DNA from: Phycisphaerae bacterium
GTDB taxonomy: Bacteria > Planctomycetota > Phycisphaerae > UBA1845
Assembly (NCBI GenBank): GCA_028289375.1
Contig: JANQQK010000028.1
Coordinates: 67,318-131,317, forward strand
Reading direction: 5' to 3'
Length of the DNA stretch: 64,000 bases
Position numbers and translations under genes: made by a program. Positions 52,929-55,328 of the stretch are shown here, piece by piece. Position 1 is the first letter of the stretch. Every line of letters begins with the position of its first letter. Under the pieces are notes generated by a model. The model did not search any database, was not told the DNA's origin, and saw only the letters and a program-made list of their open reading frames with translations.

Positions 52929-53284
52929 TGGAGGCGGGGGGAATCGAACCCCCGTCCCGCGACGGCTCAAGGAAAGCTTCTACGTGCGTAGTCGATCATT
53001 TGAGTCTCGCAATCCCCGACGCCGAACGACAGGCTTCGGGAACCGCCAGCCCGATCAAGCTCCTCGCCGACGTGCGACCAGACAAAGCACGTCAGCCAGC
53101 CCGCTGATTGACGTCCGAACGAGATAGCAGGCGTCTCCCGCCGGACGGGCTACCGCTTTTTAGGCAGCCATGCGCAACTGAGAGTTGGCATATAAAGTTT
53201 GTGCCCGTTGTTTAACGAGGCCAACGGACAACCTCGGCACGCCACTTCCCCATCGTCTCGCCCGGTCGAGCCCAAATCGCCCCC
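52929..53284 (-). ncRNA. ssrA: tmRNA (SsrA), tag ANSQLRMAA
   Basis: 5' GGGGGCGAUUUGGGCUCGAC... pairs with 3' ...CGCCUCCA, including G3:U. T-arm GGGGGUUCGAUUCCCCC. GCGUGCCGAGG...GUUGGCCUCGUUAAA pseudoknot region. Tag ORF GCC AAC TCT CAG TTG CGC ATG GCT GCC TAA at 53189-53160. Confidence 0.93.
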
Positions 53285-53371: not shown

Positions 53372-53533
53372 TCAAAAAATCGGCAGAAGCGTAAACAACT
53401 GCGACAGGAGAATCTGCTCACCCAACGCCAGCACCGTCGGAGCGATCAGCGTCGCACAGCTCCCGGCCTGCAACAGACAACCGCCCGCCGCCACCAGCAG
53501 CAACGCCTGACGAACTCTCCGCGTTCGCGTCAT
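53372..53533 (-). CDS. small exported/lipoprotein-like peptide (53 aa), triad member C
   Basis: Not in the ORF track (under 60 aa). ATG 53533 after TAAGGA. MTRTRRVRQALLLVAAGGCLLQAGSCATLIAPTVLALGEQILLSQLFTLLPIF. 9 nt downstream of member B. Confidence 0.5.
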   Translation of the reverse strand: MTRTRRVRQALLLVAAGGCLLQAGSCATLIAPTVLALGEQILLSQLFTLLPIF

Positions 53534-53542
53534 GTGCAATCC

Positions 53543-53809
53543 TTAAGGACGTGGTCCAGGTGTTGGGAAAATCGGGCCGTTGCAGCGGAACGGGATCGTG
53601 CAACTGGGATCCAGATCGAAATCGGGAATGTCCGCGAAGAAGAAGTCGATATCTTCCTGCTCGCAGAACCCCAGCACCGTTCCGCACGGGTTGAACGTGG
53701 TCAGGAGGCCTCTGCACGAGGGCAGAAAACCGAACTGAAACATCATCGTACCGGTTCCCAACAGCACCATCGCCCGCCGGGCTACTTTTCCGCGTCTGCT
53801 TCGTTCCAT
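53543..53809 (-). CDS. small Cys-rich exported protein (88 aa), triad member B
   Basis: ATG 53809 after AGGAGAAGGA. MERSRRGKVARRAMVLLGTGTMMFQFGFLPSC... with 5 further Cys. Its pattern is shared with member A. Confidence 0.6.
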   Translation of the reverse strand: MERSRRGKVARRAMVLLGTGTMMFQFGFLPSCRGLLTTFNPCGTVLGFCEQEDIDFFFADIPDFDLDPSCTIPFRCNGPIFPTPGPRP

Positions 53810-53847
53810 GCGTCCTTCTCCTGTCACCATGCTCATCCCGCCGACGT

Positions 53848-54120
53848 CTACGGCATGTCCTCCGGGCAATCCGTCAGGAAGGTGCCTTCCTCAGCCATGC
53901 CGGAATTCATGCCAACGAATGACGTGAAATTCACAGGCACGCAGAAGTCAAACAGCCCGCCAAGTGCACCATCGTTGCAATTCAGCAGGAAGCAGAAGTC
54001 AAACGAGCGAAGCACCGAGTTCACACCGAACGAAAAGCACCCGGCTCCCTGGTACACCGTCGACGACGCGAGTGCCATCATCAACAGAGCCTTTACCTTT
54101 TTCACGCGCATCCGCTTCAT
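53848..54120 (-). CDS. small Cys-rich exported protein (90 aa), triad member A
   Basis: ATG 54120 after GAGGA. MKRMRVKKVKALLMMALASSTVYQGAGC... SFDFCFLLNC...FDFC... Confidence 0.6.
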   Translation of the reverse strand: MKRMRVKKVKALLMMALASSTVYQGAGCFSFGVNSVLRSFDFCFLLNCNDGALGGLFDFCVPVNFTSFVGMNSGMAEEGTFLTDCPEDMP

Positions 54121-54245
54121 TCGTTCATCCTCGTTTTCGGAGTCTCAATGCCTCTCCAAGCTGGACGGAGGCGAGTATAGGCCACCTGCCTACCCCCCGC
54201 AACCAACATCTTCCCTCGGGACGGGTGTCCAGGCAAACCGTCCGC

Positions 54246-55328
54246 TCAATTGACGGCACCGGCCAAGTCGCCCAGGACTGCCGACACCGCGTCAGCCGTC
54301 ACCGGCTCTATCATGCCGCGCTCTGTGATGATGCCCTTGATCAGCCGTGCCGGCGTGACGTCGAAGGCTGGACAGTAACACTTCACATCTTCCGGTGAGG
54401 TCAGCGTGCCAAATCCCCGCCGCACCTCATCAGCCGACCGTTCCTCGATCGGAATCTCGTCGCCGCATGCCAACGCCATGTCAAACGTCGAACTCGGGGC
54501 GGCCACGTAGAACGGCACATCATGGGCCGCCGCGAGCAGGGCCACGCCGTACGTCCCGATTTTGTTGGCGGCGTCTCCATTGGCCGCGATGCGGTCTGCA
54601 CCGGTGATGACGAGGTCTATGCGTCCCACCTTCATCGCGTGGGCGGCCGTGTTGTCGCAGATCAGCGTCACGTCGATCCCCGCACGCATCAGCTCCCACG
54701 TGGTCAGCCGCGCCCCCTGCAGCAATGGCCTCGTCTCGTCCGCGTATACGCCGAAACTCCTTCCAAGCTCATGCGCCCGATACATGACGGCCAACGCCGT
54801 GCCCATGCCGCCCGTTGCCAATGCCCCGGCATTGCAATGTGTCAGTACCGTTCCGCCTTCGGGGATCACATGCTCCCCGACGTCGCCGATCGACCGGCAC
54901 ATCGCCTCATCCTCGTGATGGATCGCGATTGCTTCGGCCAACAGACGCTCCTTCATGTCAAGGACAGACAGCTCGACCGACGCGCGTGCCACCCGCTTCA
55001 TCCGATCCAACGCCCAGAACAGGTTCACCGCCGTCGGTCGCGACGTGGCGAGGTAGTCGCACACCTGCTCGACGCGTGCGACGAATCCGTCGCGATCATC
55101 CCCCGACCAGTCGCGTACGCCGAGTACCACGCCCATCCCGGCGGCAACGCCGATCGCCGGCGCCCCACGGACCGCCAACCGTCGAATCGCATCAAACACC
55201 GTCTCCACGTCGTCGATTCGCATCTCCACGAATTCGCCCGGTAGCAACGTCTGGTCGATCATCGCCACGTGACCATCAAGGCCACCCACCCAGTACAACG
55301 CTCGTGCATGTTCAGCGTGTTCTGCCAC
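54246..55328 (-). CDS. mtnA: S-methyl-5-thioribose-1-phosphate isomerase
   Basis: MIDQTLLPGEFVEMRI, AIRRLAVRGAPAIGVAAGMG, GADRIAANGDAANKIGTY (eIF-2B-related MtnA motifs). Confidence 0.9.
   Translation of the reverse strand: MAEHAEHARALYWVGGLDGHVAMIDQTLLPGEFVEMRIDDVETVFDAIRRLAVRGAPAIGVAAGMGVVLGVRDWSGDDRDGFVARVEQVCDYLATSRPTAVNLFWALDRMKRVARASVELSVLDMKERLLAEAIAIHHEDEAMCRSIGDVGEHVIPEGGTVLTHCNAGALATGGMGTALAVMYRAHELGRSFGVYADETRPLLQGARLTTWELMRAGIDVTLICDNTAAHAMKVGRIDLVITGADRIAANGDAANKIGTYGVALLAAAHDVPFYVAAPSSTFDMALACGDEIPIEERSADEVRRGFGTLTSPEDVKCYCPAFDVTPARLIKGIITERGMIEPVTADAVSAVLGDLAGAVN

Follow-up and report, generated by a model that had tools for sequence, protein, structure and literature searches.

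Three small genes between mtnA and ssrA

The window analyzed here, a 64,000-nucleotide (nt) stretch of contig JANQQK010000028.1 (positions 67,318 to 131,317) from an uncultured Phycisphaerae bacterium whose assembly is 5.0 Mb long and 99% complete, contains three very small consecutive minus-strand genes, which we call A, B and C. Their predicted products all begin with a basic and then hydrophobic segment that is closed by a single Cys. An earlier note on this DNA, made from the letters alone, described them as a tandem triad of small exported Cys-containing proteins, and the coordinates, lengths, spacings, Shine-Dalgarno sites and N-terminal motifs it gave for this genome are all as claimed. 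We find that they belong to a conserved, order-specific set of genes whose products may well be small lipoproteins of the cell envelope. The features of the locus are as follows (lengths of proteins in amino acids, aa):

53848..54120 (-), gene A, 90 aa; GAGGA lies 7 nt 5' of its ATG
54128..54132 (-), Shine-Dalgarno sequence GAGGA of A
54040..54120 (-), putative signal peptide of A, residues 1-27; net charge +6 in the first 12 residues, hydrophobic from V9 to G27
53543..53809 (-), gene B, 88 aa; AGGAGAAGGA lies 5' of its start
53813..53822 (-), Shine-Dalgarno sequence AGGAGAAGGA of B
53717..53809 (-), putative signal peptide of B, residues 1-31; ends FQFGFLPS before Cys32
53372..53533 (-), gene C, 53 aa; TAAGGA serves as Shine-Dalgarno sequence
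53540..53545 (-), Shine-Dalgarno sequence TAAGGA of C; overlaps the TAA stop of B
53459..53533 (-), putative signal peptide of C, residues 1-25; carries the Q-x-G-(G/S)-C signature
52929-53284 (-), one-piece transfer-messenger RNA (tmRNA, ssrA), found by ARAGORN and Rfam, 87 nt downstream of C
54246-55328, IF-2B/MtnA family gene (mtnA), directly upstream of A

The gaps between the genes are short (38 nt between A and B, 9 nt between B and C), the overlap of TAAGGA with the stop codon of B suggests that translation of B and C could be coupled, and GGAG-type ribosome-binding sites precede most orthologues of the three genes in other genomes. The three proteins have a common plan. The first 12 residues of each carry a net charge of +4 to +6 and are followed by 16–19 uncharged, mostly hydrophobic residues, and one Cys (C28 in A, C32 in B, C26 in C) ends this stretch. 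Beyond it, putative mature A has 63 aa, a net charge of -7, 10 Phe and the four Cys C43, C48, C60 and C85; its family motif is DFCF(L/I)(L/F)(N/D)C(N/Q)(D/N)G..GG..D(F/P)C ... (F/L).DCP, in which C43, C48, G55, C60 and C85 are invariant (alignment A3). Putative mature B is similar in kind (57 aa, net charge -5, 8 Phe, and Cys C42, C49, C70 and C76), with the family motif NPCGT..(G/A)(F/N)C ... PD(F/Y)..DP(S/T)CT(I/V)P. The earlier note's count of five Cys in each of these two proteins and its shared pattern L(R/T)(S/T)F(D/N)xC-x4/6-C both hold, and a profile-profile comparison (hhalign) aligns A with B from the N-terminus through the second Cys with a probability of 82.6% and E 1e-5; in their N-terminal halves A and B thus appear to be paralogues. 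Putative mature C is a hydrophobic or amphipathic tail of 27 residues (grand average of hydropathy 1.59) that ends in LLPIF and has no further Cys. The hydrophobic stretch of C ends LLQAGSC in this genome, and across the C family (alignment A4) Q22 and C26 are the sole invariant residues, within the motif LLQ-x-G-G-C, with G17 nearly invariant. The common N-terminal start proposed in the earlier note survives in part among orthologues: the basic n-region is kept but the exact M-x-R-x-R start is not, and the N-terminal Gln that is invariant in the C family lies within 10 residues of the Cys in just 11/32 A and 17/32 B orthologues.

We searched 41 genomes in six frames, namely that of the window and those of 40 relatives; 38 of them have A and 37 have B. 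Within the same family the numbers are 24/24 and 22/24 genomes, respectively, and the two genes are also present in most of the ten other sampled families of the order; both are mostly single-copy, nearly all relatives giving a single match at E ≤ 1e-3. In iterated hidden Markov model (HMM) searches on the relatives' loci, the three genes came out next to one another. In 34/34 distinct loci B comes after A, with the same orientation and at a distance of 21–144 nt, and C lies directly downstream of B in 21 of them, which gives 21 distinct C orthologues; no C-like open reading frame (ORF) was found within 900 nt downstream of B in the other 13, a correction to the tandem triad of the earlier note. 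In one relative (G005) a fourth ORF with the signature, 68 aa long and containing ...AFQLAGCSIFDPQNIARIAF..., lies just downstream of C (L003:705-911 (-)), and so the trio can be a quartet.

Pairwise ratios of nonsynonymous to synonymous substitution (dN/dS) are 0.09–0.33 for A, 0.07–0.16 for B and 0.18–0.52 for C, with dS saturated for most pairs, and the three genes are under purifying selection. Their third-position GC (0.67–0.75; 0.75 in A) and low second-position GC resemble those of the flanking genes. A, B and C are genuine genes, since their orthologues are conserved, their linkage is fixed, dN/dS is below 1 and third-position GC is like that of neighboring genes; this includes the 53-aa ORF C, for which the earlier note's view that it is real is borne out by its orthologues downstream of B. 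We give almost no credence to the alternative that the three reading frames arose by chance in a GC-rich spacer, or that the region is only a leader of ssrA. It draws on the position of the ORFs just upstream of the tmRNA and on the fact that the same GC-rich DNA also yields a 239-aa ORF antisense to A and B (window 53534-54253 (+)). That ORF is an artefact of GC-rich DNA, since its codon-position GC profile is flat (0.55/0.53/0.63), unlike the gene-like profiles of A, B and C; Rfam reports only the tmRNA itself at the locus; and the proteins are conserved in more than 30 genomes, most of which have no ssrA nearby. Conservation where ssrA lies elsewhere refutes this alternative. The earlier note had named a lack of homologues, or transcription only as an ssrA leader, as grounds for abandoning the genes, and neither applies.

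Outside the order we searched genomes sampled evenly across the phylum. None of 300 had A, and 1/400 had B, by a weak match; the C-family profile gave matches in 2/300, both weak and inside long ORFs. The trio is thus restricted to one order of Phycisphaerae and is near-universal there (~90% of genomes). In much larger protein collections, the B profile found 97 relatives (clusters) among 1.84 billion representative proteins, nearly all of them 75–145 aa long, and A found 16 proteins in a 5.8-billion-sequence collection. Three giant proteins that also matched the B profile were set aside as low-complexity repeat artefacts. Five distant metagenomic B representatives (P0070, P0076, P0078, P0092 and P0118) have canonical lipoboxes and long Gly/Thr/Asn-rich low-complexity C-terminal tails, which indicates that the B domain occurs beyond the sampled order with a different tail.

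The gene neighborhood is as the earlier note described it, with mtnA upstream (by its match to the IF-2B/MtnA family) and tmRNA downstream, and the note is also right that none of the adjacent genes encodes a modifying enzyme, a transporter or an immunity protein; a DUF4838 protein gene is the next gene upstream beyond mtnA, and decayed mobile-element remnants are also among the neighbors. mtnA is directly upstream and co-directional in 20/35 loci, mostly 125–350 nt away, a linkage that looks like inherited synteny rather than an operon. The adjacency of ssrA is true of this genome and two near relatives and of no other relative, and because ssrA is near the trio in only these three genomes its position is incidental and without functional meaning. 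In the window the spacer between mtnA and A is 125 nt long (54121-54245). A riboswitch or leader RNA there was considered and rejected, as Rfam has no match between mtnA and A.

Cysteine parity and the lipoprotein question

The number of Cys that follow the one at the end of the signal is the most informative regularity of these families. In A it is four in 30/32 orthologues and two in the remaining 2/32; in B it is four or six in 31/32; in C it is zero in 17/17; and in the wider B family it is even in 66/66 representatives. Losses come in pairs while the signal-end Cys is kept: the A orthologue at locus L041 is without C43 and C48, and the B orthologue at L006 is without C42 and C49. From this parity and these paired losses we predict two disulfides in A (C43-C48 and C60-C85) and two in B (C42-C49 and C70-C76); as the later Cys are even in number, the signal-end Cys would have some other role.

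A candidate for that role is lipidation, and we judge it somewhat better than an even bet (about 55%) that A, B and C are three small lipoproteins that constitute an order-specific, constitutive envelope module. Several observations favor processing at this Cys. Most orthologues have Gly, Ser or Ala just before it (at -1), and distant B homologues have canonical lipoboxes (VTGC, VGGC and FQVGGC). The enzymes are encoded in the host genome, with one match to LspA (PF01252) and two loci that match Lgt (PF01790), and Lgt is present in 40/41 genomes. A crude census of the host genome collected 272 larger candidate lipoproteins, of which at least 17 have x-G-G-C and 16 have Pro at -2. The main Lgt is a 413-aa ORF (contig C13:126595-127698 (-), L048/L050) whose Pfam match is in two pieces (9-155 and 152-239); it is split by an insertion of ~130 residues, and the split recurs in most genomes of the order. 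The second Lgt (292 aa, contig C24) is sporadic among relatives. The idea that it is dedicated to the odd lipoboxes of the trio was rejected, since this short Lgt is sporadic and the trio is near-universal.

A number of findings weigh against a lipoprotein module. The strict PROSITE PS51257 lipobox rule ([LVI][ASTVI][GAS]C) is satisfied by 5/32 A, 9/32 B and 1/17 C orthologues, Asp or Asn is frequent at -3 in A, and Pro, Asp or Glu is frequent at -2 in B. The Gln at -4, invariant in C, occurs in 0/272 of the larger candidate lipoproteins of the same genome, and an invariant residue within a cleaved signal peptide is unusual. None of A, B and C has a polar linker after the Cys, and C stays hydrophobic past it and could be an uncleaved membrane hairpin. 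A consensus scan of the spacer upstream of A found no sigma-70-like promoter. Association of the three proteins in a complex is inferred from gene linkage, and the 13 loci without C bear on that point as well. Finally, AlphaFold2 models are of low confidence (mean predicted local distance difference test score, pLDDT, 59.8 for A from a 41-row alignment and 57.1 for B from a 39-row alignment), and therefore no fold backs any function. Such models would also fit small folds that depend on disulfides or on a partner, and they settle nothing. Our figure for the lipoprotein interpretation is no higher than it is because evidence for and against lipidation both stand.

For the same reason, the strongest competing explanation receives an appreciable though clearly smaller share of our belief: that A, B and C are uncleaved bitopic membrane proteins (N-in, C-out) in which Gln and Gly would bring A, B and C (and the paralogues described below) together in the inner membrane and the Cys at the interface would be free or take part in an intermolecular bond. 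An uncleaved anchor would suit the restriction of invariance in C to Q22 and C26 (and nearly G17), the absence of Gln(-4) from the other candidate lipoproteins and the non-canonical lipoboxes of A and B. The charges follow the positive-inside rule, and the only element that AlphaFold2 predicts with confidence (pLDDT above 75) is the N-terminal helix (residues 2-21 in A and 3-25 in B); in the paralogues, too, the (F/L)QxGGC segment outlasts other parts in conservation. On the other hand, the hydrophobic stretch, with 16–19 residues and much Gly, Ser and Thr, is short for a transmembrane helix, a count of one Cys plus an even number in all three families best suits a lipidated Cys, three unpaired Cys cannot all pair inside one A-B-C unit, the lipoboxes of distant B homologues are of textbook form, and the N-terminal segment of A and B is far less conserved than the mature domain.

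Database searches are consistent with families that are not catalogued. None of the three proteins matches a Pfam family at E ≤ 10, the Entericidin and Gly-zipper models included; NCBIfam has no significant match (its only line, VPA0252_fam, has E 0.2 and 11.7 bits against a cut-off of 100); PADLOC and PHROGs have no match; profile searches of Protein Data Bank (PDB) sequences gave none; and a literature search found no description of these families. A dockerin or EF-hand reading of the NDG..FDF motif was dropped after a check by eye, as the Ca-ligand positions are misaligned. The families thus appear to be uncatalogued and order-specific, although their general kind, small exported lipoprotein-like proteins, is familiar; two things about them are unusual, namely that the N-terminal signature is conserved and that the arrangement A-B(-C) is fixed. 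The earlier note's proposal of a lineage-specific family of small, lipoprotein-like, disulfide-rich proteins fits these search results at the level of the order.

On the lipoprotein interpretation, the three genes would form one short operon, located downstream of mtnA among housekeeping genes. Their products would be exported by the Sec pathway through their basic, hydrophobic N-terminal signals, and Lgt and LspA would then process them at the single signal-end Cys. Mature A (~63 aa) and B (~57 aa) would be acidic, Phe-rich mini-domains with two intramolecular disulfides each, one closing a small Cx4C or Cx6C loop and the other formed by the second pair of Cys. Mature C (~27 aa) would be a lipid-anchored hydrophobic or amphipathic helix, probably in or on the membrane, and the three would probably act jointly as a constitutive structural or accessory envelope module of the order. 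Lipidation, the disulfide map, the A-B-C association and the envelope function are all things that we infer.

A different kind of explanation, that the trio encodes secreted bioactive peptides (bacteriocin-like, precursors of ribosomally synthesized and post-translationally modified peptides (RiPPs), or signals) with a conserved leader and a disulfide-rich core, appears improbable. The proteins are small and Cys-rich and have tandem paralogues, and in the wider superfamily (below) a conserved N-terminus is joined to highly variable mature parts, as in toxin and peptide families. Against this, no modifying enzyme, peptidase-containing ATP-binding cassette (ABC) exporter, immunity or receptor gene adjoins the trio in the window or in the 1.5–4 kb flanks of 34 related loci; the N-terminus is of the Sec type and is not a double-glycine leader; and PADLOC and PHROGs are silent (above). 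The genes are mostly single-copy, are found in ~90% of the order's genomes at a fixed housekeeping locus and are under purifying selection, which fits a constitutive envelope role and not a weapon or a signal; the signalling or antimicrobial role that the earlier note had offered is not upheld.

A wider set of small proteins with the same N-terminus

The host genome has at least 12 further small ORFs (~50–90 aa) with an N-terminus that is basic, then hydrophobic, and then (F/L)Q-x-G-G-C, and no large protein of that genome carries such an N-terminus. Neither Pfam (against which 10 of these paralogues were run) nor NCBIfam has a match for them. The trio and these paralogues belong to one superfamily, specific to the order, with at least 15 small members per genome. 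The paralogues change at a far higher rate than A and B, and one of them turned up in just 6/41 genomes; their N-terminal (F/L)QxGGC segment is conserved better than the remainder. A DNA pattern for F-Q-x-G-G-C was enriched only about two-fold (98 matches, summed over the 41 genomes, against 45 for the reversed control) and was given up as too noisy for a phylum-wide census.

The gene context of the superfamily suggests an envelope location, partly at the outer membrane. An 80-aa superfamily ORF directly follows a gene for an Alginate_exp (AlgE-like) outer-membrane barrel (contig C73:5363-7170 (+), L051:2-1743), and this pair is present in 4 of the 6 genomes that have the small ORF (4 genera). 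Other superfamily ORFs adjoin barrel genes of the Phenol_MetA_deg (contig C23) and DUF481 (contig C72) families, a gene for a peptidoglycan amidase lipoprotein and a gene for an SH3_3 protein. Elsewhere, rho and a pepP-like gene flank four tandem small ORFs (~57–79 aa; contig C7:80999-82139 (+), L057:534-1674), several of which have an acidic DND..FD.F tail at the end. Such an array is present in 22/41 genomes, usually with 2–3 tandem matches. One of the paralogues (contig C7:81589-81852) alone shows a GLGQGIG-like stretch.

The envelope of Planctomycetota, and of Phycisphaerae especially, is poorly understood and genetic tools are few, and small proteins are usually missed by gene callers and family databases. 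Two or three uncatalogued families that are core to a whole order, together with the wider superfamily, are candidate lineage-specific envelope components, and the N-terminal sequence signature is a simple means to find such proteins.

Comparison with known systems

The trio resembles generic bacterial lipoproteins (Sec export and signal peptidase II, with processing by Lgt and LspA) in its basic n-region, its hydrophobic region, the single conserved Cys after what is mostly Gly, Ser or Ala, and the presence of the processing enzymes in the genome; its signal-end Cys is, moreover, never needed for intramolecular pairing. It differs from them in the lipobox of A, with Leu(-2) and Asp/Asn/Gly(-3), in the L-P-S-C lipobox of B, and in the invariant Gln(-4) of C and the paralogues. 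Double-glycine-leader bacteriocins and RiPP precursors are unlike the trio, which has no C39-peptidase ABC exporter or modifying enzyme nearby and has a Sec-type N-terminus.

Entericidins EcnA and EcnB (PF08085) are tandem small amphipathic lipoproteins of enterobacteria. The trio is like them in being a set of tandem, very small lipoprotein-like genes in a chromosomal housekeeping context, and mature C, a candidate for a lipid anchor, would be a short amphipathic helix. That the trio is an entericidin-like pair or trio, a chromosomal toxin/antidote module of membrane-active small lipoproteins, is nevertheless very unlikely in our estimation: neither PF08085 nor any other Pfam model matches at E ≤ 10, the acidic, disulfide-rich A and B domains are unlike EcnA/B, C is dispensable in 13 of the 34 genomes while A-B is fixed, the trio is confined to one order of Phycisphaerae, and we saw no sign of a toxin/antidote relation among A, B and C. 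Braun's lipoprotein Lpp (PF04728) is a small, abundant envelope lipoprotein with a helical mature part, a likeness that extends to C only; there is no match to Lpp, coiled-coil heptads are absent, and C, with its hydrophobic end LLPIF, has no C-terminal Lys by which it could be attached to peptidoglycan.

SlyB, Pcp and OsmB are small glycine-zipper lipoproteins that sit within the outer membrane around beta-barrel proteins. They share with the proteins described here a small size, a lipid anchor (putative in our case) and hydrophobic or Gly-rich helices, and several of the superfamily paralogues adjoin outer-membrane barrel genes; in contrast, no HMM match links the two groups, no barrel gene lies beside the trio, and A and B are not glycine zippers. 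It is conceivable, though we regard it as rather doubtful, that the (F/L)Q-x-G-G-C N-terminus, with its invariant Gln and Cys, is a dedicated sorting, processing or assembly tag of a hitherto unrecognized class of very small envelope lipopeptides, found in this order of Phycisphaerae alone, that would be embedded in the membrane as SlyB-like partners of outer-membrane barrels and wall enzymes, with A-B(-C) as the core set that is retained universally. By analogy, and without implying membership of that family, SlyB/OsmB would be the nearest functional counterpart of the superfamily.

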